DNA of 64,000 nt from an uncultured Candidatus Binatia bacterium (lineage in GTDB: Bacteria > Desulfobacterota > Binatia > UBA9968 > CAXXLF01), in the NCBI GenBank assembly GCA_965218425.1, contig OZ244621.1, positions 1,984,001 to 2,048,000 of the forward strand, read 5' to 3'. Made by a program: the position numbers and the translations under genes. Positions 10,755 through 54,641 of the stretch are shown piece by piece. The notes beneath the pieces are model-generated. The model ran no database searches and was not told the origin of the DNA. It worked only from the letters and a program-made list of their open reading frames with translations. Each line of letters begins with the position of its first letter. Positions within the stretch are counted from its first letter, which is position 1.

Positions 10755-13001
10755 TTGGCCTATCAAACCCTGGGTAAACCCCTACCGAGAGTAGAAGGAT
10801 TAGAAAAGGTAACCGGCACAACCCAGTACGCCGCGGACCTTGCCGTACCCAATGCATTGTGGAGCAAGGTTCTTCGTAGCCCTTTTCCCCACGCCCGTTT
10901 GGTTCGGGTCGACACTTCCAAAGCCAAGGAACTGAGGGGTATTCATGCGGTCCTGTGCGGATCCGATTTGCCTCCCATTCTCACCGGGCTACGTATGAAA
11001 GATATGCCCATACTGGCCCAGGAGCGAGTTCGTTTTGTGGGGGAGCCGGTGGCGGCTGTGGCCGCCGAGAGCCCTGATATCGCCGAGGAGGCCCTTGGAC
11101 TCATCGACGTTCAGTATGAAGAGATAAATGCCGTATACGACCCCCTGGAGGCCATGAAACCGGGAGCTCCTGTGCTCCACGATGATCCGTCACGTTTTAA
11201 AAACGCCCCTCCAGTCACCGTTGACCTGCCAAACATTCAATCAATCAAGGTCTGGAAACATGGAGACCTGGAGGCCGCTTTTTCGGAAGCGACTTATATA
11301 TTCGAGCATACCTTCCGAACACCCCTCACCCATCATGGTTACCTCGAGCCCCATGCCTGCACCGTTTGGGTTGATCCCATGGGGAATGTGGAGATTTGGG
11401 CCTCCAACAAGGCCCCCTACAATTTGCGCGATAGGTTGGCCGCGGAGCTGTCCATTGAGAAAGAACGCATCAAAGTACACATTCTATCCGTGGGGGGAGA
11501 CTTCGGCGGAAAGACTTCCATCGTCGATGTTCCCATTTGTTACTTCCTATCCAAACGCGCAGGCAAACCAGTCAAGATGGTTCTCAGCTACGCGGAGGAG
11601 CTTGCGGCCGCGGCACACCGCCACCCATCGGTGATCACGTTGCGCACCGGAGTAAAACAGGACGGAACTCTCCTTGCCATGGAGGCAAAAGCCATCTTTG
11701 GCGGAGGCGCCTATGCCGCTTTGAAGGCCAACCCCGACGTAACGGTCATGGGTCCCAGGCGATTGGCGAGCTACTACCGTATCCCCGCCATTCATGTAGA
11801 AACCACCTGCGTCTATACAAACCAGGTCCCCTGCACCCAGTCCCGGACTCCGGGGAGCCCCCAGGTGGTCTTCGCCGTGGAATCCCAGATGGAAATCATA
11901 GCCCGTGAGTTGAGTCTGGACCCAATTCAGTTTCGGATGCAGAACCTATTACAGGACGGTGAAGCCTCACCCCTAGGACAGAAGTGGGAACATATTCGTG
12001 CCCGCGAGACCCTGGACAAGGCCATTAAGGCGTCCAGATGGCGCCGCCGCAAGCCCTCGAAATATCACGGTCGTGGGGTGGCCCTATACGAACGCGGGGC
12101 AAACGGCAGCAAGGCCAATGTGGCCATCACCATCGAGAACGACAGAAACATTACCGTATTAACCGGGGTGCCCGAGACGGGTCCGGGTATCTATACGGTG
12201 ATGCAGCAGATTGTCAGCGAAACCCTTGCCGTTAGTTCCCAGAAGGTCAGTGTCAAGTTTGAAAACACCCACAGCTTACCCTACGACCCAGGCACCGGCG
12301 GCAGCAAATCCACGGTTTCTACGGGCTATGCGGCTTACCAGGCGGCACAGGAGCTATTGGAAAAACTAAAAGTATTTGCCGGGCGAGAGCTTGGGTGCGA
12401 CTCTCAAGAGGTCCGTCATGTGGACGGGCGATTTATGGGTCAAGGACGAAAAAGCCTTTCCTTTGAGGAAGTAGCCACATGCGCTGTGAGCGAGAATCAC
12501 GGTCCCATCACCCATCTAACGTTTTTTGAGCCTTCCAAGGGGCCTTCGGTTACTTCCTTTGCCGCCCAGGTGGCCGAAGTGGAAGTGGAACCTGAAACGG
12601 GTCAAGTCACGGTGAAGAGCATTACTACCGCGCATGACTCCGGTGTTGTGTTGAACTCTCTCACCTACCAGGGTCAGGTGGACGGAGGTGTCATCACGGG
12701 GCTAGGATTTGCCACCATGGAAGAAACTCCATTGGCCGATGGGCATGTGTCCACCGCAAACCTCGGCGAATTCAAAATACCGACTACAATGGAGGTCCCC
12801 AGTTTGACCACCGTCTTGTTGGAAAGCGCCACTGGACCGACCCCCTTTCATGGCAAGGCCATCGCGGAAATCCCTAATGCGCCAACGGCCGCTGCCATAG
12901 CTAACGCCGTGGCCGATGCGGTGGGGATTCGGCTCTTCGAGTTACCGCTGACAGCGGAGAGAGTGTACAAGAGCTTGAAGCAGCTGCAGCCCCTGGGCTG
13001 A
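10755..13001 (+). CDS. Xanthine dehydrogenase/CoxL family molybdopterin-binding subunit
   Basis: KVTG...YAAD, VLRSP.PHA, YLEPH, VGGDFGGK, GQVDGG...GLG, KAIAE; TTG start after AGGAGG. Confidence 0.92.
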   Translation: MAYQTLGKPLPRVEGLEKVTGTTQYAADLAVPNALWSKVLRSPFPHARLVRVDTSKAKELRGIHAVLCGSDLPPILTGLRMKDMPILAQERVRFVGEPVAAVAAESPDIAEEALGLIDVQYEEINAVYDPLEAMKPGAPVLHDDPSRFKNAPPVTVDLPNIQSIKVWKHGDLEAAFSEATYIFEHTFRTPLTHHGYLEPHACTVWVDPMGNVEIWASNKAPYNLRDRLAAELSIEKERIKVHILSVGGDFGGKTSIVDVPICYFLSKRAGKPVKMVLSYAEELAAAAHRHPSVITLRTGVKQDGTLLAMEAKAIFGGGAYAALKANPDVTVMGPRRLASYYRIPAIHVETTCVYTNQVPCTQSRTPGSPQVVFAVESQMEIIARELSLDPIQFRMQNLLQDGEASPLGQKWEHIRARETLDKAIKASRWRRRKPSKYHGRGVALYERGANGSKANVAITIENDRNITVLTGVPETGPGIYTVMQQIVSETLAVSSQKVSVKFENTHSLPYDPGTGGSKSTVSTGYAAYQAAQELLEKLKVFAGRELGCDSQEVRHVDGRFMGQGRKSLSFEEVATCAVSENHGPITHLTFFEPSKGPSVTSFAAQVAEVEVEPETGQVTVKSITTAHDSGVVLNSLTYQGQVDGGVITGLGFATMEETPLADGHVSTANLGEFKIPTTMEVPSLTTVLLESATGPTPFHGKAIAEIPNAPTAAAIANAVADAVGIRLFELPLTAERVYKSLKQLQPLG

Positions 13002-13149
13002 TAGAACCACCTTCAGCCGGTGGAAACGGCAAGCATCTCCAGTAAAAGTCTCTCTACGCAGCCCTAAAGCGTCGCGAACCCAAGGACTACCACCAATGGC
13101 AGTGAGCAGCTGGCGGCAAATCGCCGGTCAGTACTGAGTCGCGATTGCT

Positions 13150-13240
13150 GAGTACTGAGCGAAAACCGTAAAGAGACTACAGACTTCGGGTCGTCAATCC
13201 TTAGCTCCAGGTCAAAGGTCAGTAGTCGATAGTCGGTGGC
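13150..13240. repeat. Intergenic dispersed repeat homologous to about 39695-39800
   Basis: ACTGAGCGA-AAC-GTAAAGAGAC...GGTCGTCAATCC shared by both loci. Confidence 0.6.
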
Positions 13241-13340
13241 CCCGATCCCCAAGGACGCTATGCGCCTTGTTCCTTGCTGCCTTAGAGAGGTCAGATTGCA
13301 ATGCCAGGCTCCTTCACTGTAAGCTGCCCATAGAACGCCA

Positions 13341-14060
13341 GTGATACAACCCGTAACCCCCAAGAAGGCATCCACGGTGATACTTATCCGACCGGACAAC
13401 CGTGGAAAGTTTGAGGTCTTCATGACCCTGCGTCCCGCCGAGATGAAATTCCTCGGTGGATTTTATGTTTTTCCCGGCGGAAGCATCAGAAAAAGGGACT
13501 ACTCAGAGGCCATGCTCAATCGATGCCAAGGTCTTTCTGGAAGCGAAGCTCAAAGGATTCTTGGCGACCAACTCAGCCAGGAACTCGCAATGGGGCACTG
13601 GGTGGCGGGGATCAGAGAACTCTTTGAAGAAGTGGGGATACTTCTCTGCGTCACAGAGTCCGGTGAACCCTTGGACATGACAAAAGACAACATAAAAGAT
13701 CGGTTGGCTCGTAAGCGCGAAGCCCTGGTCCGGGGATCCCTGGATTTTCCGACCCTGCTGGAATCGGAATGCCTGCGTTGCGATCTGGGTCGTGTGGTTT
13801 TTTTCTATCATCGGGTGACACCGGAAATGTATTCCATGCGGTTCGATGCCCGCTTCTATCTAGCCCGGTTACCGTCGGGCCAGTCTCCATTGTCTTGCTC
13901 CGAAGAGGTCGCAGATGGCCTTTGGATCACACCTGAACAAGTCCTGGAGGCGTCCGAAAGGGGTGACTTCCCGGTCATTCCCCCCACCACTACTTCCTTA
14001 AAGACCCTAACGGCATTCGATTCTTGGCAGAGTCTCTGCGCCAAGTACAAGCTAGGTTAA
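13341..14060 (+). CDS. NUDIX hydrolase
   Basis: YVFPGG...GIRELFEEVG Nudix box, RFDARFY, PPT. Confidence 0.88.
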   Translation: MIQPVTPKKASTVILIRPDNRGKFEVFMTLRPAEMKFLGGFYVFPGGSIRKRDYSEAMLNRCQGLSGSEAQRILGDQLSQELAMGHWVAGIRELFEEVGILLCVTESGEPLDMTKDNIKDRLARKREALVRGSLDFPTLLESECLRCDLGRVVFFYHRVTPEMYSMRFDARFYLARLPSGQSPLSCSEEVADGLWITPEQVLEASERGDFPVIPPTTTSLKTLTAFDSWQSLCAKYKLG

Positions 14061-14141
14061 GACTTATTCGCTACCGAATGCACCTACCGTTTATCTCTAC
14101 GCCGTGTAACCGAGATGCTGTTTAAGCTAGAGTGATCCCCC

Positions 14142-15020
14142 ATGAAGGATGATCCAGATATCCCCCTTCGGGTCACCGAGGATCTCGCGACCACTGAAGA
14201 GTGGACGCTTGTGCTGGTTGCCGAGGGGTTGTCACCGGCTGTGCGGCGCACGAGTTATGGGTTTGCCCTGGTGGTTCCGGCCAGCGAGACGGAGCGGGCA
14301 AACGCAGCCCTTGCCGCCTACGAGAGTGAAAACCCACCCGTGCCACAGGTAGAGGATAAGCTCCAGGGTGCTGGGTATCTGACAGCCGGCATTACCGTTG
14401 CAACTGCGCTTCTGGCATTTTTTCTTATCACCGGAGAGCCGGACCCAGGGAACTCATGGTTCAAGCGTGGCAGCTCGGATGCGGCCTACCTCTTGAGTGG
14501 TGAGTGGTGGCGGAGCGTCACTGCGCTCACCCTGCACGTGGATCTTGGACATGTGCTTTCCAACGCCATTGCCATGGTCCTGTTCCTGAGCGCAGTGTGT
14601 CGCTCGCTGGGTCCAGGACTCGGCATCGCCACTGTTTTGTTGGCCGGTGCAGCAGGCAACCTCGCCAACGCTTTCTTACAGGGTCCCGCCCATGTCTCGG
14701 TGGGGGCATCCACGGCGGTATTCGCCGCTGTTGGCGTTATTGTGAGCTTGGCCGTGGTGAGACGTCGCCGTATGCGATCCTTTGGGCGCCGTGCCTGGTT
14801 GCCCATTGCCGCCGGATTCGCCCTCCTGGCGATGTTGGGGACAGGACAGTACCGGGTGGACCTCTGGGCTCACTTCCTGGGCTTGCTCGCCGGGGGACTC
14901 CTGGGAGCGGCCGTCGCGCTTTATTGTTACCGCCCGCCACGCTCTACCGTTCAGTGGACCCTGGTGGGCGCCTCCCTTGCGCTGGTTATCGGCTGTTGGG
15001 CCTATGCGCTCCGGTATTGA
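14142..15020 (+). CDS. Rhomboid family intramembrane serine protease
   Basis: WWR..TALTLH...H..SN, GAS catalytic Ser, AHFLG catalytic His, multiple TM segments. Confidence 0.9.
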   Translation: MKDDPDIPLRVTEDLATTEEWTLVLVAEGLSPAVRRTSYGFALVVPASETERANAALAAYESENPPVPQVEDKLQGAGYLTAGITVATALLAFFLITGEPDPGNSWFKRGSSDAAYLLSGEWWRSVTALTLHVDLGHVLSNAIAMVLFLSAVCRSLGPGLGIATVLLAGAAGNLANAFLQGPAHVSVGASTAVFAAVGVIVSLAVVRRRRMRSFGRRAWLPIAAGFALLAMLGTGQYRVDLWAHFLGLLAGGLLGAAVALYCYRPPRSTVQWTLVGASLALVIGCWAYALRY

Positions 15021-15071
15021 TCGAGAACTCGGTTAATTGTTATTGTTAATCGTTTCGCCACGGGCCACTGA

Positions 15072-16151
15072 ATGGGTGTTTTGGGGATCATGAAAAAGGG
15101 GAAAGCTGACACTCCTGACTTAGTTCCTGCGCCTGTCCCAGAGTCTGAATGGGCTGCTTGGTCTGATGAGAAGCTCCTGGACATGAGGATATGCGATTTG
15201 CAACTAGAGATCCTGGGAACCGATATCGAGGAGCAGATTGAGCATCTCTACCAAGAGTTAGAGGACCGGGGTCTTGGCTTTCGCCCATTTTTCTGGCTCT
15301 CCGACGACTGGTTTACTCCAGACGGTGTCTCCGGAATCGCTATCCCTTTTTACCTGGCCCATCCGCGCCTGGCGCGCCTTGAGCTCAACCAGATGTTCGA
15401 GGTTGAGGGTGGGACTTCCGAGTGGTGCATGCGAATCCTTCGCCATGAGACCGGGCATGCCATAGAAAATGCCTACCTGTTACGGCGACGGCGACAGCGA
15501 CAGAAATTGTTCGGCAAATCCTCAAAGGCCTACCCTGAACACTACACGCCCAAGCCCTACAGCAAGAGATTCGTGCTCCACCTCGACTCCTGGTACGCCC
15601 AGAGCCACCCAGACGAGGACTTTGCGGAAACTTTCGCGGTCTGGCTTGACCCCAAATCCATGTGGCAAGAGCGCTATGCGGGCTGGCCCGTACTCAAAAA
15701 ACTCCAGTACATAGACCAGCTCATGCATGAGATTGGAAAGCGTGACCCGCTGGCGGAGCCACAAAGGCGTATGGAACCTGTCTCCCGATTGACCAAGACA
15801 CTGCGAGCACACTACTTGGAAAAACGCCGACACTACGGCGTCGAACACCCCGATTTCTACGATCGGGATCTCAGAAGGCTGTTCTCCGACGCCAAGGAAT
15901 TCCGGGGTAATATGACAGCGGCGTCTTTTTTGGGTCGGATTCGCAAGGAGGTACGCCGCAAGGTGGCAAGATGGACGGGTGAATACCAATACACCATTGA
16001 CCAGGTTCTACAGGATATGATCGACAGGTCCCGGGAACTCAACCTTAGACTGGCAAATAGCGAGGATCAAACAAAGTTAGACTTTACTGTTCTCCTTACG
16101 GTTCAGACGATGAACTATCTCCATAGTGGTCGTCACCGGCTGGCGTTATGA
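15072..16151 (+). CDS. Putative zinc-binding metallopeptidase
   Basis: LRHETGH (HExxH) and HPDEDFAETF motif. Confidence 0.85.
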   Translation: MGVLGIMKKGKADTPDLVPAPVPESEWAAWSDEKLLDMRICDLQLEILGTDIEEQIEHLYQELEDRGLGFRPFFWLSDDWFTPDGVSGIAIPFYLAHPRLARLELNQMFEVEGGTSEWCMRILRHETGHAIENAYLLRRRRQRQKLFGKSSKAYPEHYTPKPYSKRFVLHLDSWYAQSHPDEDFAETFAVWLDPKSMWQERYAGWPVLKKLQYIDQLMHEIGKRDPLAEPQRRMEPVSRLTKTLRAHYLEKRRHYGVEHPDFYDRDLRRLFSDAKEFRGNMTAASFLGRIRKEVRRKVARWTGEYQYTIDQVLQDMIDRSRELNLRLANSEDQTKLDFTVLLTVQTMNYLHSGRHRLAL

Positions 16152-17170
16152 AAAAACTCAGAATCTTAGCGTTGATGCACGAGGATCTTGTTCCTCCCGA
16201 GGACATCTCCGGTATCGAGATCGAATCGGCGGAGTGGAAGACGGAGTATAGCGTCGTGACGACGTTACGCAAGATAGGGCACGAGGTCCTTCCCCTTGGG
16301 GTGCGAAGTGATCTGGAGGTAATTCACAAGACCATCGATGAGTGGAAGCCTCACATCGCCTTTAATCTACTCGAAGAGTTCGACGGTGTGGCAGTCTATG
16401 ATCAAAACGTGATCGGCTACCTCGAACTGTTGGGGATGCCCTACACCGGATGTAATCCGCGGGGTCTGATGCTGGCTCGTGACAAAAGCCTGTCCAAAAA
16501 GATTCTCGCCTATCATCGGATTCTTCACCCCGACTTTGCATTTTTCCCCATGGGACGCGCCGTGAGAAGGCACAAGCGTCTGGGGTTTCCGTTGATCGTC
16601 AAATCCGTCTCCCAGGAAGCCTCCCTGGGGATTTCCCAAGCCTCTATTGTGGATGACGATGACAAACTCCGAGAGCGCGTGTCCTTCGTTCATAAGAACG
16701 TTGGAACCGATGCCATTGCCGAAAGGTATATCGAAGGGCGCGAGCTATACGTAGGAGTCCTGGGCAACATGAGACTGCAAGTATTTCCCGTCTGGGAGTT
16801 GTTTTTAGACGGCTTGCCCGACGAGGTACAGCGCATCGCCACTGCAAGGGTGAAATGGAACCCAAACTATCAGAAAAAATACGGTATCACATCCGGGCCG
16901 GCGGAAGGGTTACCCAATGGGGTGAAGGAAAGGATTCAATATCTAGCCAAACGGATATACCGCGCCCTAAATCTAAGCGGATACGCCCGCGTCGATCTCA
17001 GGCTTGACACTGAAGGGAGGGTCTATGTCTTGGAAGCCAACCCTAACCCTGAAGTGGCTGAGCAGGAAGATTTCGCCGAATCCGCCCGTGAGGCTGGGAC
17101 CCTCTACAATGACCTGCTGCAGAAGATTCTCAATCTCGGTTCCCATTGGCGACCCGACCGGTTGGGATAG
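16148..17170 (+). CDS. ATP-grasp ligase (D-Ala-D-Ala ligase-like)
   Basis: PYTG, DK.LSK, PLIVK, ERYIEGRE, YARVD, LEANPNP; ATGA overlap with the peptidase. Confidence 0.85.
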   Translation: MKKLRILALMHEDLVPPEDISGIEIESAEWKTEYSVVTTLRKIGHEVLPLGVRSDLEVIHKTIDEWKPHIAFNLLEEFDGVAVYDQNVIGYLELLGMPYTGCNPRGLMLARDKSLSKKILAYHRILHPDFAFFPMGRAVRRHKRLGFPLIVKSVSQEASLGISQASIVDDDDKLRERVSFVHKNVGTDAIAERYIEGRELYVGVLGNMRLQVFPVWELFLDGLPDEVQRIATARVKWNPNYQKKYGITSGPAEGLPNGVKERIQYLAKRIYRALNLSGYARVDLRLDTEGRVYVLEANPNPEVAEQEDFAESAREAGTLYNDLLQKILNLGSHWRPDRLG

Positions 17171-17265
17171 CAAGAGGGGCAGGAACGACCCAATCACGGC
17201 AGTTTGACAATCAGCCAAAAGAAAAGCTACAGATAGGTATCGCTTCGAGTGCTGCGGAGGAACAA

Positions 17266-18402
17266 ATGCTCGTTAAAATGGCCAAAGGCGCCACCCCGGA
17301 ACAGATCACTGCAGTTGAGGAGAAACTGCACGGTTGGGGGTATAAAACCGGCAAGATGGCGGGCGAGGAGATCACCCTCATCGGGGCCTATGGGGACATA
17401 ACCCGCCTGCCGCAGGGTGAAATCCAGGAAATGGGTGGGGTCGAAAGCCTCATCCCCATCTCTAGGGCCTATAAACGAGCCTCTCAGAAAGGCTCTCCAG
17501 ACAGCCTTATACACAATACCGTAAACATTGGGAAAATTGAGGTTGGGGGCGACAAATTGACCGTTGTGGCAGGTCCCTGTTCTGTGGAAAGCGAGCCCCA
17601 GATCATGGAGGCCGCCAAATTTGTCAAAGAGTCCGGGGCCACGGCACTGCGCGGAGGAGTGGTTAAGTACCGCTCCAGTCCCTACAGCGGCTGGGAGGGT
17701 ATCGGCTCCAACTCGGAAGAGGCTCTGCGTAACGGGCTCAAACTCATTGTCAAAGCCGGTAAGGAATTTGACTTACCCACCGTGGTGGAGGTGCTCGATC
17801 CCAACGATGTCACCGTCTATGAAGACATGGGGATCGATTGTATCCAGGTGGGCGAGCCAAACTCAAAAAACCAAGCCCTGTTGAACCGTTTGCGCGATAC
17901 ACCACTGCCGGTCATCCATAAACGCGGCAACTCACTGGACATTGAAGCTTATCTGTTATGGGTGGAGCGCGTGATGGCCAATGGAAAAGAGAACGTCATC
18001 CTGTGCGAACGGGGCATCATGAGCGCCAACAAATATACCCGCAACACCTTGGACCTGGGCGCCATTGCCGCCCTGCACTATCAACTCTCGTGCCTGCCAG
18101 TTGGAGTGGACGCTTCTCATGGTACCGGGATCCGTGACCTCGTTCACAGTATGACTCTGGCCGGCATCATGGCCGGTGCCTCACTGGTCTTAATCGAGGC
18201 TCATCCCAACCCGCTCATCGCAAAATCGGACGGATTTCAAGGACTGTTTCCCGAGCAACTCATTCGGTTGGTGGCTGCCTGTTATCAGGTTTGGGACCTA
18301 CGCAAGCGCCTCGACTGTCTCTACATCCCAACCACAAACTTGGAACGCGACTACGACGCTCGGTCCACTACGGACAAGAAACGTTTCTTCGGCGCCTCTT
18401 AA
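17266..18402 (+). CDS. Divergent class I-beta DAHP synthase-like protein with N-terminal regulatory domain
   Basis: AGPCSVE, LRGG, HKRG, LCERG, TRNTLD, DASH, EAHP, SDG retained; KPRTS is KYRSS and GARN is GEPN; GGAGG RBS before ATG 17266. Confidence 0.85.
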   Translation: MLVKMAKGATPEQITAVEEKLHGWGYKTGKMAGEEITLIGAYGDITRLPQGEIQEMGGVESLIPISRAYKRASQKGSPDSLIHNTVNIGKIEVGGDKLTVVAGPCSVESEPQIMEAAKFVKESGATALRGGVVKYRSSPYSGWEGIGSNSEEALRNGLKLIVKAGKEFDLPTVVEVLDPNDVTVYEDMGIDCIQVGEPNSKNQALLNRLRDTPLPVIHKRGNSLDIEAYLLWVERVMANGKENVILCERGIMSANKYTRNTLDLGAIAALHYQLSCLPVGVDASHGTGIRDLVHSMTLAGIMAGASLVLIEAHPNPLIAKSDGFQGLFPEQLIRLVAACYQVWDLRKRLDCLYIPTTNLERDYDARSTTDKKRFFGAS

Positions 18403-18520
18403 GAGTTGTGAGAGTCCTTTATTCCTCCCACGACCCAACAACCACTAAATCATGTCAGAAATAGAGACAGGCAAACACAAAGACAGCTAGAGCCCGAGTT
18501 CAGGCCAAGACGGATTGTCC

Positions 18521-19255
18521 ATGAAGGTCCACTTTTTAGGGTGTGGTGACGCCTTCGGTAGCGGAGGAAGAAATCACAGCGCTTATCTGGTGGAGGCCTC
18601 AGACCGTCTCTTTTTACTGGATTGCGGTCCCACTACCCTTCTATCCATGAAGAGGGCGGGATTTGATCCACAACGGCTTGACGCTATCATCCTGAGCCAT
18701 CTCCACGGGGACCACTTCGGCGGACTGCCTTTTTTTTTCCTGGAGTACCTCTACGGGACCCCACCCTCCAAGTCCTTGCCCATCATGGGTCCCGCCACCA
18801 CCGAGGAGCGCGTTCGCACATTGACCCATTGCATGTATCCGGGCATTTCAGAGCGCAATCAATCTCTTCCAACGCGGTTTCATATCCTCGAGCCGGGAAA
18901 ACAGGAATCCATCGAAGGCATCGACATCCTTCCCTTCCGTGTGCCGCACCAGGTCCAGGAGATTTCCCTGGGGCTCAAGATAGGTTATCAAGGAAAACAA
19001 ATTCTCTATTCAGGAGACTCGGCGTGGACGGATCAGTTCATCACCCATTCTAAGGGGGTAGACCTCTTTATCTGTGAGTGTTCTTTTTTTGCACGGGATT
19101 CCGAAGCTCATCTGAGCTACAGGAAGATTCAAGAGAATCTCCCTCAGCTAAAGTGTAAAAACCTGGTGCTCACCCACATGGACGAAGAAACGTTAAGTCA
19201 GAGACTAGACTTGTCCGTGAAGTCAGCCGAAGACGGGATGGTGGTTGAAATTTAA
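18521..19255 (+). CDS. MBL-fold metallo-hydrolase (RNase Z-like)
   Basis: LGCGDAFGSGGR, LDCG, SHLHGDHFGG, YSGDS, LTH. Confidence 0.9.
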   Translation: MKVHFLGCGDAFGSGGRNHSAYLVEASDRLFLLDCGPTTLLSMKRAGFDPQRLDAIILSHLHGDHFGGLPFFFLEYLYGTPPSKSLPIMGPATTEERVRTLTHCMYPGISERNQSLPTRFHILEPGKQESIEGIDILPFRVPHQVQEISLGLKIGYQGKQILYSGDSAWTDQFITHSKGVDLFICECSFFARDSEAHLSYRKIQENLPQLKCKNLVLTHMDEETLSQRLDLSVKSAEDGMVVEI

Positions 19256-19288
19256 TGCGAATCCTAGCATAAATCGGAGGGACGCCCC

Positions 19289-20176
19289 ATGGAAGTGATC
19301 AAAGGCCAGTTCAAAGAAACCAAAGGCATTCCACCCAGTGGTCTGTGCGTGGGGGTTCATCGTGCCGGGGCCATCCATATGAAAATGGTCGAGAAATATG
19401 GAGACGGACTATCAGTCTGGTCGCTCAGACCCGACCTGGATTTCGTGGCCTTCAAAAAGGAAGGCCTTGGGGAAAAAGGCATCCGCGCTACGAACGATAT
19501 GGAATCCATCACGGATGAAAAGCTCATCTATGGAGTCCGGGGGGCCCCACCGGAAATCCGGCAGAAGGCCCGGGATCAGGGGCTTGAGCTGCTGGCGGAC
19601 GCCACCTGCCCTTTCGTGCTTGAGCAGGAAAAAGCCGAGGTGGAGATGCTGCAGCAGGGGTTCAACCTGGTGGTATTGAGCAGCGCTACCCATCACGGTA
19701 TCCCACGCTTGTTGGGTATCGCAAAGGAAGCGGGACGCGAGGTTTTTATCGTGGAGAAAGAAGAGGACGTGGACAAGATACGCCTTACCCGCTTCGAGCC
19801 CGTCGGGGTCATCGTTCAAACCACTTTCTGGATGGAATCTTACAAAAAGATCATGGCTCTAATCCTGGAGCGGTTCTCCAATGTTCGCGTCCGAAACACC
19901 GCGTGCATCGATTCTTTCCAGCGGCTCCCCGAGGTGGAAAAACTGGCCAAACAGGTGGAGGCGGTCGTCATCGTGGGATGGACCGAGGGGATGACCACAC
20001 GCATGTTAGAGGTGGCTAAAGCTTCCAACCCGTGCGTCTACAAGCTTGAAAAGGTGGAAGAGCTTGAAACCATCTGGTTTCGGGGCAAGGAAAAAGTCGG
20101 TGTCATCGGGGCCAACGAAACCCCCGACTGGATGGTGGATGAGGTCATCGAGCGGATCAAATCCATGGCGGCATAG
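19289..20176 (+). CDS. Divergent IspH/LytB-like Fe-S protein
   Basis: GLCVGV.RA, DATCP.V, QTT, NTAC and ETP.W.V.EV give the IspH fold with all three Cys; the His, Glu and SSN motifs are altered. Confidence 0.8.
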   Translation: MEVIKGQFKETKGIPPSGLCVGVHRAGAIHMKMVEKYGDGLSVWSLRPDLDFVAFKKEGLGEKGIRATNDMESITDEKLIYGVRGAPPEIRQKARDQGLELLADATCPFVLEQEKAEVEMLQQGFNLVVLSSATHHGIPRLLGIAKEAGREVFIVEKEEDVDKIRLTRFEPVGVIVQTTFWMESYKKIMALILERFSNVRVRNTACIDSFQRLPEVEKLAKQVEAVVIVGWTEGMTTRMLEVAKASNPCVYKLEKVEELETIWFRGKEKVGVIGANETPDWMVDEVIERIKSMAA

Positions 20177-20188
20177 GCAACACGTCAG

Positions 20189-20476
20189 ATGCCAAAGATT
20201 ACCTTCATGCCTTCCGGACAGAGCTTTGACGTGGATGAAGGCACCACAATATTAGCGGCGGCCATCCATAATGGCCTCCACCTCCCCCATGATTGCACCG
20301 AGGCCATCTGCGGAACCGATCGGGTGAAGGTCTTGTCCGGTCACAAAAACCTGAGCGAGAGGGGCGACAACGAGGAATTGACCTTGAGCATGTTAAATTC
20401 CGGCGCTGATGATCGTCTGGGCTGCGTCGCGCAGGTCCTTGGGGAAGTGGTGGTAGAAATCCCTTCTCCGTCTTAG
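20189..20476 (+). CDS. 2Fe-2S ferredoxin (C-x4-C-x2-D ... C)
   Basis: HDCTEAICGTDRV...RLGC; 12 bp after the IspH-like gene. Confidence 0.85.
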   Translation: MPKITFMPSGQSFDVDEGTTILAAAIHNGLHLPHDCTEAICGTDRVKVLSGHKNLSERGDNEELTLSMLNSGADDRLGCVAQVLGEVVVEIPSPS

Positions 20477-20572
20477 CTCCCTCCTTTCGGTGCTCCCTAA
20501 GAAAAAGATTTTTCTGAAAAAACTCGACTGATCTGTTGTCGAACTGCGCCATGCAACCCTTTGCAGAACTGA

Positions 20573-21380
20573 TCAACCGGAATTTTCCATAAAGCTTATG
20601 ATCTCTCTCGCTGCGTTGACCGCACCGTCGATTGGGTCCTGTAGCCGTTTGAGCCGCTGCATATTTTCCCGATAACTCTTGTCAGTCGTGATGAGCTCAA
20701 TTGCAGCGGCAAGTCTGCGACTGCTCAAGGTCTTCGGGTGCAATGCCTAGTATCTCCGGAGCATCCATTACGAGTGTCAGGTCACCGGCCATCAGGTCGA
20801 GGGCGCTCTTGAACTCCGATGGTTTTAGCTCTGAGGCAAGCTGATTAAACGGCCTGATCCACAGCCGTAGCCGAGGCATGATCCAGTTGACAAACCAGTT
20901 CATAGGCAGGTAGTGAAGCCAACCGAATTAAGGCGGGTACAAATACGCCATCTTTCGATCGAAGAAGGGGGCGGTGAATGGGGTCAGGCCGCTGCGCCAC
21001 AATGGGGATACCAACAAGCCGGACTGACAAATAAGACGGGAGATTCCATCCAATGATCACTACATCGGCTTTCGCATCACGGAGCATTCCCGCTTCACAT
21101 GGGACATACTCCTTTAGCTCTTCGTAGGTGAGGAAACTATCGCGGAACGGGTTGCCGACCTCTCCCCCGTTGAATGCCATGTACTGCTTGGCCCGTTCCC
21201 GTGACATCATGGGTGGGACAGGGAGCACCTCGAAACCTGCGTCTTGAGCTACCCACTCGTATGAACCGCCATGGCTGAAAAACGGAATGTCGTGTCCCAT
21301 CTCACGGAGGGCTTTGCCAGGTTCTACAAGGCGTGACACCTCTGAAAGGTAATAGAAATGAGAAAGCAGACGATGTTCAT
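20573..21380 (-). pseudogene. Glycosyltransferase (MGT/UDP-GT family) pseudogene with frameshifts and an internal deletion
   Basis: Fragments in different frames: MNIVCF/YYLSEVSRLVE..GH....FSHGG.YE; DLTLVMDAPE; C-terminal SYRENMQRLK...DGAVNAA. Confidence 0.7.
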
Positions 21381-21676
21381 GGGTGATATAGACGACCGGA
21401 CTGAAACCAGTGCTTATAACTACTACGTTTCTGATTGGAGACGCAATTTAAGCTATGACAGGCCGTATCTTGAGGAATCCGTCGACCACAAAAGCAAACC
21501 CGGGGATGAGCTGGCTCAAATTTTAACACTCGCTCCTTGACGGCCAGGTTATCCCCTTTACCTCTCTTTCGCTGGGTTCGTCCGAGTCTTCTAAGAAGAG
21601 TGAGCCCGCTGCATTGACAAGAACAAGAAGAGGGTCGTAAGGTACGGAAACTGAAGCCAGAACGTTCGGGAGGCAT

Positions 21677-23785
21677 GTGCCAACGAGCTACATCATTGGG
21701 GTTGATATCGGCGGGACATTCACCGACTGCGTCGTGGTGGACGGCGAGGGGGCGATCACTCTCGGAAAGGCCCCTTCAACGCCCCACGACTTCTCCCATG
21801 GAGTCATCGATGCCCTACTGGACGCGGCGCGCAACCTGGACCTACGTAATGAGGAGGAGTTGCTTCGCTCCACGCGACTCTTCTTCCATGCCTGCACCGT
21901 AGGAGAAAACACTTTGATCACGCGGGCGGGTGCGAGAACCGCCCTGATCACCACGCGGGGATTTGCGGATGCCGCGCTCATGATGCGAGGCTCCACCACC
22001 ACCGGGTTGACGGAGCACGAGGCATTTCACGAATCCGAACTGCGCAAACCGGACCCTCTGGTGCCTCGGAGCCTTATCGCCGAGATCACTGAGCGGGTGG
22101 ACTACAAGGGTGCGGTCTTGGCCCCATTGAATGCTGAGGAGGCACGACAGGTGGCGAAAAGTCTTGCCTCTAAAGGCGTGGAATCAGTGGCCATCTGTCT
22201 CCTGTGGTCCATCGCAAACAATGCTCACGAGCACGCCATCGAAAAAATATTGAAGCAGGAATACCCAAGCATTTTTGTCAGCTGCTCGAGCGAGGCTGCT
22301 CCCTTCCTAGGAGAGTACGAGCGAGGTATCACTACCATCTTCAATGCGTATATGGGCCCCAAGGTCGCGGCTTACCTCAGATCGCTTCAGACCGGCCTGA
22401 AGGCGCTGGGTCTCGCTAAGGAACCTCTCATTATGCAGTCTTACGGCGGCGTTTTGGGCATCGACGCCACCTGCAAAAGTGCCGTATCCACCATTGAGTC
22501 TGGTCCCGCATCCGGGGTAGTGGGCACACACTTTCTTGGAAAGCTTATCGGCGAAGAGAACGTTTTGGCCACGGACATGGGCGGGACCACTTTTAAGGTT
22601 AGCGTTATCCGTAACGGGGCTTTGGAACGGGACTACGCTCCCGTGTTCATGCGCTACCGGCTGCTGAGCCCCAAGATCTGGGTAGAGTCCATCGGGGCAG
22701 GCGGCGGGAGTATTGCGTGGATCGATCCCGAGACGACGCTCCTTAAGGTGGGTCCTCAGGGTGCCGGCGCACGTCCCGGTCCCGTCTGCTACGCCGTAGG
22801 CGGTACGGAGCCCACAGTTTCCGACGCCGACCTTATCCTTGGATACCTGAATCCGGACTACTTCCTTGGCGGGCGAATGAAACTGGACAGGGAGAATGCG
22901 GTCAAGGCGATCCAAGACAAGATCGCTACCCCCATGGGCATGAGTGTTGTGGAAGCCGCGGCCGGTATCTATCGCATCGCGAACTCGCACATGACTGACT
23001 TGATCCGCAAGGCAACAGTGGAGCGCGGCTACGACCCCCGTATTTTCACCCTGTTCGCCTACGGTGGAGCTGCCCCGGTCCACGCCGCAAGGTACTCCTC
23101 GGAACTGGGAGTGCGGCAGGTGGTGATCCCGCCCACCGCCTCGGTTCATGGGGCCACCGGACTTATTGCATCCGACGTGGTTTACGAGTACGGAATGTCC
23201 GATCACCTTGTGATCCCTGCTTCAGTGGACCATATCAATAGCAACTTTAACAGTCTGATGGAGAACGCGTTTGGCGATCTCCACTCCGCCGGCTTCAGCG
23301 ATGAGGGCATCGAGATTGTCCGTAGCATGGACGTGCGCTATCGCTACCAGGTCCACGAGCTAAACGTCCCCCTGTCCTCGGGAACGAAGGAGTTGGTGGC
23401 AAAAGACCTGGAGAGGTTGTATGAGGATTTCGACATCTCCTATGAACAGTCCTATGGACAGGGATCGGGGTACCGCGAGGCAGGAAAGGAGGTCATCACC
23501 TTTCGCGTAACTGGCATCGGGAAGCTCCCCAAGCGGCATATCAAGCGCTTGACCCGAGGAGAAAATATGAAAACCCGGGCCATGAAGGCTACAAGAGAGG
23601 TTTACTTCGAGGCTGCTGGCGGATTTGTGGAAACCGCGATCTATGACTTCACAAAAATTGGACCCGACGTCGAAGTAGAGGGTCCCTCGGTTATCGAGAG
23701 CCCCGTGACCACCATCGTAGTCAACCCGAAGGACGGAGCCGTCATGGACGAGTTCCGCAATATCCGCATTCGCATTGGAAGCTAG
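21677..23785 (+). CDS. Hydantoinase/oxoprolinase A subunit (acetone carboxylase beta-like)
   Basis: GVDIGGTFTD, SGPASG, DMGGTT, IGAGGGS, GPQGAGARPGP, PTVSDA. Confidence 0.92.
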   Translation: MPTSYIIGVDIGGTFTDCVVVDGEGAITLGKAPSTPHDFSHGVIDALLDAARNLDLRNEEELLRSTRLFFHACTVGENTLITRAGARTALITTRGFADAALMMRGSTTTGLTEHEAFHESELRKPDPLVPRSLIAEITERVDYKGAVLAPLNAEEARQVAKSLASKGVESVAICLLWSIANNAHEHAIEKILKQEYPSIFVSCSSEAAPFLGEYERGITTIFNAYMGPKVAAYLRSLQTGLKALGLAKEPLIMQSYGGVLGIDATCKSAVSTIESGPASGVVGTHFLGKLIGEENVLATDMGGTTFKVSVIRNGALERDYAPVFMRYRLLSPKIWVESIGAGGGSIAWIDPETTLLKVGPQGAGARPGPVCYAVGGTEPTVSDADLILGYLNPDYFLGGRMKLDRENAVKAIQDKIATPMGMSVVEAAAGIYRIANSHMTDLIRKATVERGYDPRIFTLFAYGGAAPVHAARYSSELGVRQVVIPPTASVHGATGLIASDVVYEYGMSDHLVIPASVDHINSNFNSLMENAFGDLHSAGFSDEGIEIVRSMDVRYRYQVHELNVPLSSGTKELVAKDLERLYEDFDISYEQSYGQGSGYREAGKEVITFRVTGIGKLPKRHIKRLTRGENMKTRAMKATREVYFEAAGGFVETAIYDFTKIGPDVEVEGPSVIESPVTTIVVNPKDGAVMDEFRNIRIRIGS

Positions 23786-23832
23786 CCGTGGCCAGGCTGG
23801 ACATGGGGAGATCCTGTATATGAAAGGAAACT

Positions 23833-25677
23833 ATGACAACGGTCACCACGGAAAACATTGACCCGGTAACCTTTGAGATCCTCTCTCACCGGCTCCACCA
23901 GATCGCCAAGGAGATGGGCACCACACTGGAGCGGGTGGGTGGAACGGTCAATACCACACAGCAGCACGATTATATGGCCTCGCTATACCGTCCCAACGGC
24001 GACATCCTGGCCACGGGCGAGTCGATGCCATGGCACGTGGCCTGCGGCGGTTTTACCGTGAAGCGGATCTTAGAGCGTTTCGAGAACGAGGAGGGAATCT
24101 ACCCGGACGATGTCTTTCTCCTCAACGATCCTTACCTTTCAGCTATCCATCAGTCGGACTTGTACATGGTGGCGCCGCATCACCATGAAGGAAAGTTGAC
24201 CAGCTGGAGTGCATCATTCGTCCACGTGATGGATATCGGCGCCATGTCACCCGGGGGCAACTCCCCGGGAGCAACGGAGATCTGCCAGGAGGGGGTGAGG
24301 ATTCCCGGCCTCAAGCTGGTGGAGCAGGGCCGGTTCCGCCGTGACGTCTTCGAGATGATTACATGCATGACCCGCCAGCCCATGATGGTAGGCCTGGACC
24401 TAAAGTCCGAGCTGGCCGGCAACAATGTCGCCAAGCAACGGATGCAGGAGATGGTAGGCCAATACGGCTGGGAGCTTATAGACACGGTTTCTCAGGAGAT
24501 GATCCGTTATTCGGAGGCCGCCCTGCGCCGTCGCATCACCGAACTTCCGCAGGGCGAGTGGAGAGCGGAGACGACTATTCAAACGGGTTCGAAGCTCGTT
24601 TCTCGGATCATGGTTACCCTGAAAAAACGCGGCGACGCCTTGATCTTCGATTTTACCGGGACGGACGAGCAGGCGAAGGTAGGCATCAATCTTCCATTCC
24701 ACGCCACCTTCGGCTCCTGTTACGATGCCGTCATCATGACCATGGCATACGACCTCCCAAAGAATCACGGCCTGTTCCGCCCCATCGAACTCGTGGCTCT
24801 GCCGGGAACCCTAGTTAACGTTCAGCACCCCGCCCCGGTATCTCTGAACACTACGTCCGGCGGCGCCGCTGCGAAGTTCGTCGCCCGTGCGGCCATGATC
24901 CAGATGCTGGCCACAGACAAGAGCTGGCGAAAGGAGGTCATGGGGTTGAACTCTGGCTCCCGTCTCGTGAGGACGGCTGGACTCAACCAGCGGGGCGTTC
25001 CCTATGTCTCCGGCTTAGCACAGGGAGCCATCAGCGGTGACGGCGCCCGTGCAACGCGCGACGGCAACGATACCGGTAGCGGCGGTTACATGAGCTGTCC
25101 CAACGTAGAGTGGGCCGAGCGCAACTTCCCGCTCCTCTTCCTGTTTCGCCGCCATATCAAGGATGGCGGCGGCGCGGGCAAATTCCGCGGCGGCGCAGGT
25201 GCCGAGATGGCCATAACGGCACATGATTCCCCGGAGGGAAAGATCCGCGCCGTGGCCTACGGAGTGGCCGGCTTTGGCAACACGGGCCGAGGGGTCGGCG
25301 GCGGCTACCCCGGTGCACCCAGCCTGCTCATCCATTTCGAAGGAACCGATCTAGAAGAACAACTAGCCGCCGGTAAGTATCCGCACAACGTCACGGAACT
25401 GGGCGGCACCTCCAGGCTTCTGCCCTACTGCGACTTCGAAATCAAGAGAAACGATGTGCTCTTTTATCGTCTGGGGAACGGCGGCGGGTACGGAGATCCT
25501 CTGGAGCGAGAGCCGGAAGCGGTGCTGAACGACGTCCTGAGCGAGGTTGTCTCTCAAGAGAGCGCCCGCGACCTTTACGGAGTAGTGCTGAAAGATGACG
25601 CTGTGCAAGTGGACCACAAAGCGACCCGGCAGCTCCGTGCTCGCTTGAAGGCCAAGCGACAGGGGGAACCGGAGTGA
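23833..25677 (+). CDS. Hydantoinase B/oxoprolinase subunit (acetone carboxylase alpha-like)
   Basis: IDPVTFEIL, NDPY...HQSD, HVMDIG, DGGGAGKFRGG, GGGYGDPLER. Confidence 0.92.
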   Translation: MTTVTTENIDPVTFEILSHRLHQIAKEMGTTLERVGGTVNTTQQHDYMASLYRPNGDILATGESMPWHVACGGFTVKRILERFENEEGIYPDDVFLLNDPYLSAIHQSDLYMVAPHHHEGKLTSWSASFVHVMDIGAMSPGGNSPGATEICQEGVRIPGLKLVEQGRFRRDVFEMITCMTRQPMMVGLDLKSELAGNNVAKQRMQEMVGQYGWELIDTVSQEMIRYSEAALRRRITELPQGEWRAETTIQTGSKLVSRIMVTLKKRGDALIFDFTGTDEQAKVGINLPFHATFGSCYDAVIMTMAYDLPKNHGLFRPIELVALPGTLVNVQHPAPVSLNTTSGGAAAKFVARAAMIQMLATDKSWRKEVMGLNSGSRLVRTAGLNQRGVPYVSGLAQGAISGDGARATRDGNDTGSGGYMSCPNVEWAERNFPLLFLFRRHIKDGGGAGKFRGGAGAEMAITAHDSPEGKIRAVAYGVAGFGNTGRGVGGGYPGAPSLLIHFEGTDLEEQLAAGKYPHNVTELGGTSRLLPYCDFEIKRNDVLFYRLGNGGGYGDPLEREPEAVLNDVLSEVVSQESARDLYGVVLKDDAVQVDHKATRQLRARLKAKRQGEPE

Positions 25678-27695: not shown

Positions 27696-27986
27696 ATGGG
27701 CAAGCGAAGGCGTTTCACCCAAGAGTTTAAGTTGGAAGCTGTTCGACTGCTGGAGGCGGGCGCTCGGCCAGCAGCGGAGATTGCACGGGAACTGGGAGTA
27801 CCTCGCAATCGACTGTACAAGTGGCAGGAGCAAGTGACGAGGAAAGGGGCGGCTGCGTTTCCCGGCACAGGTCGAGGTAGAGACAACGATGAGGTAGCAC
27901 GGTTAAGGCGAGAGCTGGAGCGGGTAACGCAACAACGAGATATATTAAAAAAGGCCGCAGCGTACTTTGCCAAGGAGCTCAAGTAA
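27696..27986 (+). CDS. IS3 transposase OrfA (HTH)
   Basis: RRRFTQEFKLEAVRL...IARELG....LYKW...RDILKKAAAYF. Confidence 0.92.
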   Translation: MGKRRRFTQEFKLEAVRLLEAGARPAAEIARELGVPRNRLYKWQEQVTRKGAAAFPGTGRGRDNDEVARLRRELERVTQQRDILKKAAAYFAKELK

Positions 27987-28846
27987 AGTACGCGTTTATA
28001 CGAGCTCACAGGACAGAGTTTAGGGTAGTGAGGATGTGCGAGGTATTAGAGGTCAGTCGTAGTGGGTACTACGACTGGAGCGGTCGAGGGGAGTCTCGGC
28101 GTAGAGCACAGGATAAGGTTGTGATCAAAGAGATCCGCAAGGTGCACGAGAGCTACAAGGAAGCGTACGGGGCAGTCAAGACATGGCTGACGCTGAAGGA
28201 GGCGGGGGTGACATGTGGGAAGCATGGGGTGGCGAGGCTGAGGAGTTTAGTGGGGATAGAGACGCGTCGGGTGCAAAGGTTTCGATTGGCCTACAAGGCT
28301 CGTCACAGTGCGCCACCGGCACCGAACTTGTTGCGTCAACGCTTCGAAGCGTCAGGCCCCGACCAGGTATGGATGGCCGATATTACCTTCATTGGTACCC
28401 GATCTGGGTGGTTATACCTGGCGGTAGTGGTGGACCTTTACTCTCGGCTGGTGGTGGGATGGTCAATGAAGCAACGTCCCACACAGGAGTTGGTCAGTGA
28501 AGCTTTACTGATGGCTATCGAACAGCGCCAGCCTATGGCGGGGCTGATTCACCATAGCGACCAAGGAATCCAATACGCTAGCAATCACTACGTTGAGTTG
28601 CTCAAACGCCATGGGGTGGTGCGCAGCATGAGCCGCAAAGGGAATTGCTACGACAATGCAGTGGTCGAGAGTTTGTTCAGCTCACTAAAGAATGAACTTG
28701 TACACCATCAGGATTATAAGACGAGGCAGGACGCTAGGTCGGATATCTTCGACTACATTGAACTGTTTTATAACCGAAGAAGAAAGCATGAGTCGTTGGG
28801 ATACCACACCCCAATGGCATATGACTCGATCAAACGTGTGGCTTAA
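27947..28846 (+). CDS. IS3 transposase OrfB (DDE), reached by -1 frameshift
   Basis: WMADIT, DLYSR, HSDQG.QY, GNCYDNAVVES, YNRRR.H. Confidence 0.92.
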   Translation, partial: KKGRSVLCQGAQVKYAFIRAHRTEFRVVRMCEVLEVSRSGYYDWSGRGESRRRAQDKVVIKEIRKVHESYKEAYGAVKTWLTLKEAGVTCGKHGVARLRSLVGIETRRVQRFRLAYKARHSAPPAPNLLRQRFEASGPDQVWMADITFIGTRSGWLYLAVVVDLYSRLVVGWSMKQRPTQELVSEALLMAIEQRQPMAGLIHHSDQGIQYASNHYVELLKRHGVVRSMSRKGNCYDNAVVESLFSSLKNELVHHQDYKTRQDARSDIFDYIELFYNRRRKHESLGYHTPMAYDSIKRVA

Positions 28847-53469: not shown

Positions 53470-54375
53470 TTAAGTTAGAGCCGGAATTATCTGGAGTCCA
53501 GCCCATGGGGATGAATTCCCAGCCTGCGCTCTGGGCAGAAAGGCCTCCGGTGCCGGAGAACGATAGCCCAGGGCGCTGTGAGGCCGCCGCTGGTTATACT
53601 CTCTTCTCCATCTTTCGATCAGCACCTGAGCTTCCCTCAGGGTTTCAAACACCTCCCGGTTGAGCAGCTCATCCCTGAGTTTTCCGTTAAAACTCTCCAC
53701 GTAGCCATTCTCCCAAGGACTGCCAGGCTCGATGTAGAGTGTCCTGACACCAATGGCCTTGAGCCAGTCCCGGATAGCCTGAGCCGTAAACTCGGGGCCA
53801 TTGTCGGACCGAAGGGACTGCGGCACGCCCCGTTCCACGAATAGCTCCGCTAACCGTTCCAGCACATCCCGGTGATTCATCCGTCTGGCCACATCAATCG
53901 CCAAGCACTCCCGGGTGTATTCATCCAGGATGCTCAACAGCCGAAAGGCCCGACCGTCTTCGGTTCGCTCGTGCACGAAGTCATAACTCCACACATGGTT
54001 TCGATGCGCCGGTCTCAGGCGAATGCAGGAGCCATCAGTCAACCGGAGCCTCCCTCGCTTAGGCTGACGGCTGAGGACTTTCAGCCCTTCCTGCCTCCAG
54101 AGCCTCTCCACTCGCTTGTGGTTGACCTTCCACCCCTCCCCACGCAGCATGGCCGTAATCCTCCGGTAGCCGTATCGCCCGTATTCGCTGGCCAGCTCCA
54201 TCATCCGAGCCACTAGTCTTGCTTCCTCTTCCGGGATCTCTCGGACTCTTCGTTGCGTCGATCGCGGCTGTCCCAACACTTGGCAAGCCCGGCGTTCGGA
54301 GACTCGATCAGGTCCCAATCTTTCTCTGGCCCATATCACCGCTCGTCTCCTCTTCGCCGGGCCTAGAAGTTTCCC
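53470..54375 (-). CDS. IS3 transposase OrfB (DDE)
   Basis: [51 protein letters not shown]. Confidence 0.92.
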
Positions 54376-54641
54376 GAGGACACTTCCTTCAGGATCTGGT
54401 TGTCCAGCGATAGATCCGCCACCAGCTTCTTCAACCGCGCATTCTCCTTGTCCAAGGCCTTGAGCCTCTTGGCCTGATCCATCTTCAGGCCTCCATATTC
54501 CTTCCTCCACCGGTAGTAGGTCTGCACGGTTACCCCCACCTGCTTGCACACCTGGCCCACCGCCTTCCCTTGGGCCAAGCTCACCTCCGCCTCACGCAGC
54601 TTGAGGATAATCTGCTCGGCCGTAAATCGCTTTCTTGCCAT
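54363..54641 (-). CDS. IS3 transposase OrfA
   Basis: [16 protein letters not shown]...[12 protein letters not shown]...[14 protein letters not shown]. Confidence 0.92.

Follow-up and report, generated by a model that had tools for sequence, protein, structure and literature searches.

A four-gene run in a Candidatus Binatia genome holds two uncharacterised enzyme variants and may join three independent units

The type I-beta 3-deoxy-D-arabino-heptulosonate 7-phosphate (DAHP) synthase of Thermotoga maritima, IspH (LytB), phosphodiesterases of the metallo-beta-lactamase fold and [2Fe-2S] ferredoxins are the closest described relatives of the proteins considered here. In IspH, the cluster is held by C12, C96 and C197, the substrate is bound by H41, H74 and H124, E126 is the proton donor and T167 acts as a relay (PMC9745026). 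We compared with these systems four consecutive genes from an uncultured Candidatus Binatia bacterium, lying in a window of 64,000 nucleotides (the whole stretch of DNA that was analysed) of a genome referred to as G000, which consists of one contig and is 97% complete. All four open reading frames (ORFs) are on the + strand and encode DAHP* (17266..18402), a divergent type I-beta DAHP synthase of 378 aa recognised by profile and domain matches and by motifs; a metallo-beta-lactamase-fold hydrolase of the RNase Z/cyclic-nucleotide phosphodiesterase type (18521..19255, 244 aa); IspH* (19289..20176), a remodelled IspH-fold protein of 295 aa with a LytB match and three cluster cysteines; and Fd* (20189..20476), a [2Fe-2S] ferredoxin of 95 aa (Fer2) with Asp for one Cys. 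None of the four proteins reached a curated NCBIfam cut-off in a profile search. The locus holds two uncharacterised enzyme variants.

An earlier note on this DNA had read the four genes as a single pathway of condensation, hydrolysis and ferredoxin-driven reduction acting on a less phosphorylated substrate. Its description of the layout, four co-oriented genes with gaps of 118, 33 and 12 bp, is correct as stated; the single pathway is not supported, as the genes are distributed differently. We favour, at slightly better than an even chance, a reading in which three independent units were joined in one family: a DAHP synthase variant that replaces aroF, a near-core hydrolase, and an IspH*-Fd* reductase of a probably anionic, non-isoprenoid substrate. 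Among 100 genomes of the order (Candidatus Binatia by the names of their matches, and including the unpublished G045, a DAHP* carrier, G047 and G078, which carry IspH*-Fd*, and G060), the hydrolase occurs in 93, IspH* in 55, Fd* in 51 and DAHP* in 7; kin genomes are not independent, and co-occurrence is given as counts without a test statistic. All four genes are present in G000, G001, G046 and G090, adjacent in the first two only and unlinked in the others. Two outcomes that the earlier note had named as refuting its pathway are partly borne out: no DAHP synthase candidate other than DAHP* was found in G000, and the synteny is confined to one family. Where the sequence runs on for at least 3 kb past DAHP*, IspH* follows in 5 of 51 loci, two of the five being family genomes already counted.

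DAHP* comprises an N-terminal FXD/ACT domain, a barrel, a 7-residue loop insertion and a C-terminal helical extension of ~35 residues, and its model (mean predicted local distance difference test score, pLDDT, 87) matches the barrel fold. Profile scores remain below cut-off (NF006421, 307 vs 335 bits; TIGR01361, 231 vs 268 bits). The metal ligands C105, H285, E311 and D322 are retained, as had been noted before, and are invariant. Aligned with T. maritima 1RZM, the protein keeps C102, H272, E298, D309, R126, K131, R133, K207 and R237 and carries the substitutions P132 to Y, T134 to S, A185 to E, R186 to P and Q189 to K; the roles that we assign to these T. maritima residues are presumed ones. 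As a result, the KPRT motif reads KYRS and GARN reads GEPN (GEPNxK), while the K-x-R-S loop has the length found in users of erythrose 4-phosphate (E4P) and retains K, R and S, its Pro being replaced by Tyr. These substitutions are conserved across relatives, fixed or nearly so: in the best 120 of 7365 DAHP* homologs, Y135, E197 and K201 occur in 120 and P198 in 114, and the GARN-motif position reads GEPN in 114 and is of the GEVN type in 6, so that the phosphate-binding Arg is gone. In one locus (L137), K201 is replaced by Arg.

The loss of phosphate-binding residues, which the earlier note had claimed for both paralogs, is real. In DAHP*, however, one such residue only is lost (T. maritima R186), and K134, R136, S137, K219 and R249 are retained. 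The aligned motifs are PAFLCR in the KdsA of G000, GEPNSK in DAHP* and GARNMQ in canonical aroF. Because 3-deoxy-D-manno-octulosonate 8-phosphate (KDO8P) synthase, too, is without Arg here and has a basic residue three positions further along, the loss in DAHP* does not imply an unphosphorylated substrate. We take the Arg of the KDO8P synthase PAFLxR motif to reach the active site of the neighbouring subunit. An R106G mutant of KDO8P synthase has been studied, which is as much as the title of PDB entry 1T8X confirms. DAHP* has neither the KANR(S/T) loop nor the long beta7-alpha7 loop of KDO8P synthase, and G000 has its own kdsA. In a quick tree of 47 rows, which has long branches and was used for the monophyly of DAHP* alone, DAHP* sequences group together on a long branch separate from Binatia aroF (100% support in the Shimodaira-Hasegawa-like approximate likelihood ratio test, SH-aLRT); judging from this tree, DAHP* is not recently derived from Binatia aroF. 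A further, very divergent type I-beta DAHP-synthase-like protein (KPRTR, GTRNAQ), also on a long branch, was seen in G427 (L221:846-2036), a genome that carries DAHP* as well.

The shikimate genes of G000 bear on the role of DAHP*. A PF00793 search of the genome returned kdsA and DAHP* and no others, a class II DAHP synthase was found neither in G000 nor in any of the 100 genomes of the order, and 3-dehydroquinate (DHQ) synthase II was not found in G000. Present are aroB, aroC, aroK, aroQ, aroE, aroA, pheA and tyrA, with aroK and aroQ recognised by sequence and position. In relatives the gene order is pheA-hisC-aroF-tyrA-aroA; in G000, an internal deletion has left ~52 codons of aroF between hisC and tyrA (genome ~3145942-3146100, L211:3943-4101, beyond the window) in an otherwise intact operon. 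The remnant is 65% identical to the aroF of G001 over 37 residues, the flanking genes are 85-91% identical, and the deletion is crossed, with zero differences, by contigs from the public runs X1 and X2. DAHP*, which had been taken for a paralog, is the only DAHP synthase candidate found in this genome. Furthermore, the aroF of G002 has two frameshifts together with E164K and S308R, and aroF is intact in G003, the sole family member in which DAHP* was not detected (500 contigs). G242, a 100% complete genome of another order, has kdsA and DAHP* as its only PF00793-type genes; there hisC directly adjoins tyrA, aroK, aroB and aroE are present, and neither a class II DAHP synthase nor DHQ synthase II was detected. 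From these gene inventories and the active-site residues, we consider it rather probable that DAHP* acts as the DAHP synthase of G000, using phosphoenolpyruvate (PEP) and E4P.

Several observations weigh against this assignment or narrow it. The aroF of G001 has a single frameshift that is possibly a sequencing error, its other changes being conservative, and the genomes G000, G001 and G002 are related to one another. A full-length type I-alpha DAHP synthase stands alongside DAHP* in 27 of 37 outside genomes reached via DAHP* loci, with intact motifs in 5 of the 5 checked, and an intact I-beta aroF does so in G046, G076 and G090. In addition, the Glu (E197) beside the PEP phosphate site has no explanation. 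Since DAHP* coexists with full-length DAHP synthases in many genomes, it may have a role of its own; it is usually an isoenzyme or a protein with its own role, and the sole candidate in a minority of carriers. In a further carrier, G428 (L222), a frameshift splits the type I-alpha DAHP synthase in two, which is possibly a fifth instance of loss and possibly an error. The usual setting of DAHP* is the head of a peptidoglycan-recycling run of ldcA, a PBP4B-like serine hydrolase gene and mpl (L108-L144, L156-L194): downstream of it lie ldcA in 48, the serine hydrolase in 41 and mpl in 35 of 75 loci longer than 3 kb, many of them cut by contig ends. IspH* is present in 0 of 35 outside DAHP* genomes, where the best match is 33% identical and 21 genomes gave no match to the IspH* query. 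One of these 21, G407, has ispG yet returned no IspH match to that query, the LytB family itself not having been searched there.

IspH* falls below all IspH cut-offs (TIGR00216, 136 vs 188 bits) and is 25% identical to the canonical IspH of G000. It is a true paralog, as had been proposed, because canonical ispH (TIGR00216, 333 bits) and ispG exist elsewhere in the genome. Its model (mean pLDDT 93) adopts the trefoil fold with a TM-score of ~0.82 to E. coli IspH, and a fold search with this model gave no relative but IspH at E up to 0.001, the Atlas yielding LytB clusters only. The cluster cysteines C20, C107 and C206 are kept, in agreement with the earlier note, as are the equivalents of H124 and T167; of the substrate-binding histidines and the proton donor, H124 alone remains. 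The pocket replacements are H41 to F52, H74 to R84, E126 to G137, the S225-N227 loop to E233-G-M235 and S269 to E277, where the Ser and Asn residues of IspH (S225-N227, S269) presumably have phosphate roles. One turn past G137 lies an invariant R140, which one alignment sets opposite E126. R84, H135, H136, G137, E233 and E277 occur in 120 of the 120 best IspH* homologs, and D208 is invariant as well. Alongside the losses, IspH* thus gains the basic residues R84 and R140; its pocket is rebuilt, not emptied, and an anionic substrate is therefore suggested. Outside the order, IspH* was not found in a class sample of 251 genomes. More distant IspH*-like forms, 33-45% identical, are present in the 50% library (e.g. 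P0244, P0249, P0258 and P0261) and share R84 and the HG-x-x-R motif.

Fd* has the ligand pattern C-x4-C-x2-D...C, with Asp44 at the third Cys position, a feature that does not appear in the earlier note. Asp occupies this position in all 120 listed Fd* homologs (of 466 found), and Cys does so in the four solved relatives among the alignments listed. A cluster with Cys3Asp ligation is known from E. coli SdhB. All 51 genomes of the order that carry Fd* also carry IspH*, Fd* occurs in 0 of the 45 genomes without IspH*, and the 4 IspH* genomes that have no Fd* are fragmented assemblies. In families f1 and f3, the distance between Fd* and IspH* is at most 1.2 kb in 25 of the 25 genomes having both; in f2, it is retained in 26 of 27 genomes though IspH* lies elsewhere. 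Because Fd* tracks IspH* even when moved away, the two proteins are, by this sequence evidence, likely to form a redox pair, and the earlier suggestion that the locus brings its own electron donor stands, with Fd* as the likely dedicated partner of IspH*.

The genes around IspH* in relatives, UbiD and SLOG in f2 and cyclodeaminase-like, VOC, cupin, GST, CMD and Fe-S proteins in f3, point to catabolism and to no single substrate. That they differ between families counts against our reading to the extent that the substrate class is weakly constrained. We tentatively place it, at rather less than an even chance, among anionic, unsaturated or hydroxylated acids. A gene of the PEP-mutase/isocitrate-lyase family lies near Fd* in 11 of 17 f2 loci (e.g. 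L314:8963-9988, G019) and offers a lead to the substrate class.

The hydrolase is closest to the RNase Z/cyclic-nucleotide phosphodiesterase clade by its best PDB and NCBIfam matches. This phosphodiesterase-type clade is a poor fit to the less phosphorylated substrate proposed earlier. The gene is near-core and is present in 41 of the 45 genomes without IspH*. G002 has a truncated copy of it but intact DAHP* and IspH* genes, and in G001 purU is inserted between it and IspH*. In f3, it faces a gene labelled D-Ala-D-Ala carboxypeptidase-like by sequence appearance, without a profile scan, in 22 of 28 loci. Against its independence, 19 of 26 f2 genomes have the hydrolase no more than 1.2 kb from Fd*. 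As the same holds for 0 of 21 in f3, we read this nearness as an insertion site shared by f1 and f2, although a functional hydrolase-Fd* link may exist. The hydrolase is likely a bystander beside which the IspH*-Fd* unit inserted.

Taken together, the three units might work as follows. DAHP* would condense PEP and E4P by means of its retained metal ligands and K134, R136, S137, K219 and R249; K201, which aligns with the PAFLxR Arg of KDO8P synthase, an enzyme that still uses PEP, probably offsets the lost Arg (T. maritima R186). In IspH*, the open site of a [4Fe-4S] cluster may bind an unsaturated or hydroxylated acid, which R84, R140 and R212 would keep in place; Fd* would pass on the electrons, and E233, E277 or D208 would stand in for E126 as proton donor. 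The reaction would likely be catabolic, given the UbiD, cyclodeaminase-like, VOC, cupin and GST neighbours in relatives. A bolder version holds that IspH* and its Cys3Asp ferredoxin form a new class of Fe-S reductase, in which the diphosphate pocket has become an arginine clamp for carboxylic acids and ring-derived acids are dehydroxylated in Binatia catabolism, and that DAHP* runs without the canonical phosphate-binding Arg by the KDO8P-synthase solution; we regard this combination as somewhat unlikely.

Both enzyme assignments have rivals. DAHP* might instead be an aldolase-type synthase of altered specificity, perhaps for an envelope sugar acid, with the aroF-less genomes importing shikimate intermediates or using a side activity. 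Such a synthase would agree with the long, fully supported branch, with the invariance of Y135 and E197, with the intact DAHP synthase that most carriers also keep and with the usual place at the head of a peptidoglycan-recycling operon; moreover, its regulatory-domain residues are unlike the aligned ones of T. maritima, which we take to bind tyrosine. It is nevertheless improbable in our view, as DAHP* has the short K-x-R-S loop of E4P users rather than KANRT or the long beta7-alpha7 loop, is the sole candidate beside an intact aroB in G000, G002 and G242, and is accompanied by a separate kdsA-like match in all carriers checked. A comparable doubt attaches to the direction and nature of the IspH* reaction: with its iron open as in aconitase, the protein could be a non-redox hydratase, dehydratase or isomerase whose cluster is reactivated by Fd*, or it could oxidise its substrate and have Fd* accept the electrons. 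In f2, IspH* adjoins a UbiD decarboxylase, an arrangement resembling the archaeal mevalonate route, in which an Fe-S dehydratase is paired with UbiD, and Asp ligation may, with some uncertainty, raise the potential of a cluster. The proton donor E126 is gone, and E. coli IspH hydrates alkynes (PMC9745026). Yet the retention of one specific ferredoxin in 51 of 55 IspH* genomes is more typical of a catalytic electron partner, and the new acidic residues E233, E277 and D208 are invariant, so that we also hold a non-redox or reversed reaction to be improbable.

As for the single pathway, the short gaps, the shared orientation and the purifying selection on all genes speak for it, and so does the order DAHP*-hydrolase-IspH*-Fd*, which recurs in L152, L153 and L164. 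The last of these has a synonymous divergence (dS) of 1.5-2.4, so that the arrangement is long-lasting in the family, which counts against three independent units. The independent distributions, the unlinked occurrence in G046 and G090, the truncated hydrolase of G002 and the unrelated company of NUDIX, rhomboid, peptidase and ATP-grasp genes in the block leave it, however, very unlikely. That the changes reflect decay or pseudo-enzymes, as scores under the curated family cut-offs could suggest, is extremely improbable: the ratio of nonsynonymous to synonymous substitution rates (dN/dS), calculated against five related loci, is 0.03-0.14 for every tested block gene, the new residues are invariant in 120 homologs and both folds are confident. 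These values, indicative of purifying selection, show the block genes to be working genes; decay was rejected on this ground, and relaxed selection, which the earlier note had wanted examined, is seen in none of the four.

The family-conserved block extends beyond the four genes to NUDIX-like and rhomboid genes (13341..15020, +) and to a Peptidase_Mx-like zinc protein paired with a D-Ala-D-Ala-ligase-like ATP-grasp protein (15072..17170, +), a pair that belongs to the same family-limited syntenic block and was not included in the earlier note. As NUDIX and rhomboid genes are kept in it, the block mixes unrelated functions. Within the pair (window 15072-17170), the Peptidase_Mx-like ORF overlaps the ATP-grasp gene, whose product reaches no Ddl cut-off; elsewhere in G000 there is another ddl-like match, more distant than this one. 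The named homologs of the four proteins are mostly from Candidatus Binatia. Window positions 14000-22000 were found whole, with zero differences, in contigs of runs X1 and X2, which may be the source of this DNA. A promoter and terminator scan of 13000-21700 gave 4 and 11 sites, respectively, vs 4.6 and 9.2 in shuffles; the counts equal those in shuffles, and the scan therefore says nothing on operon structure. After the block, here and in L153, follows a hydantoinase/oxoprolinase A and B pair (window 21677-25677) that is nearest to caprolactamase CapAB and below cut-offs. IS3-type transposase ORFs lie at window positions 27696-28846 and 53470-54549, a Pfam integrase core being confirmed for the second.

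We found no description of a DAHP* or IspH* subfamily in the literature covered, most subscription journals being outside that coverage. IspH is known on isoprenoid diphosphates, and IspH* with Fd* provides a defined two-protein system in which to seek new Fe-S chemistry. DAHP*, in turn, is a natural test of the residues that separate DAHP synthases from KDO8P synthases. Because DAHP* is below curated cut-offs, genomes such as G000 and G242 would be scored as being without the first step of the shikimate pathway. More generally, the locus illustrates that a tidy four-gene run may be a patchwork.

Compared with described systems, DAHP* shares with the T. maritima type I-beta DAHP synthase (PDB 1RZM, 1VR6, 3PG9; NF006421, TIGR01361) the FXD domain and barrel, the C/H/E/D metal ligands and ~35% identity (Foldseek E 1e-31), and differs from it by the loop insertion, the C-terminal extension and altered regulatory-site residues. 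With the KDO8P synthase KdsA (TIGR01362) it has in common the missing Arg at the GAR position and the basic residue three positions later, whereas the KANRT loop and the long beta7-alpha7 loop are particular to KdsA, to whose profile DAHP* scores 67 bits vs a cut-off of 314. The hydrolase has the HxHxDH metal motif of RNase Z-like and cyclic-nucleotide phosphodiesterases (B. anthracis BA1088, 1ZKP; 6KNS; Apyc1) and differs in being under every curated cut-off. Fd* shares the Fer2 fold and the C-x4-C-x2-X...C spacing of ISC and plant-type [2Fe-2S] ferredoxins (PDB 9I2A, 1I7H); its third ligand is Asp, so that the ligation is not Cys4. Finally, IspH* differs from the IspH/LytB reductase of (E)-4-hydroxy-3-methylbut-2-enyl diphosphate (HMBPP; TIGR00216; PDB 3DNF, 3KE8) in being without H41, H74, E126, S225-N227 and S269, in having the invariant R84, R140, E233 and E277 and in its occurrence in one order only among the genomes searched, while sharing with it the trefoil fold, the three cluster cysteines, the H124 and T167 equivalents and a ferredoxin partner.

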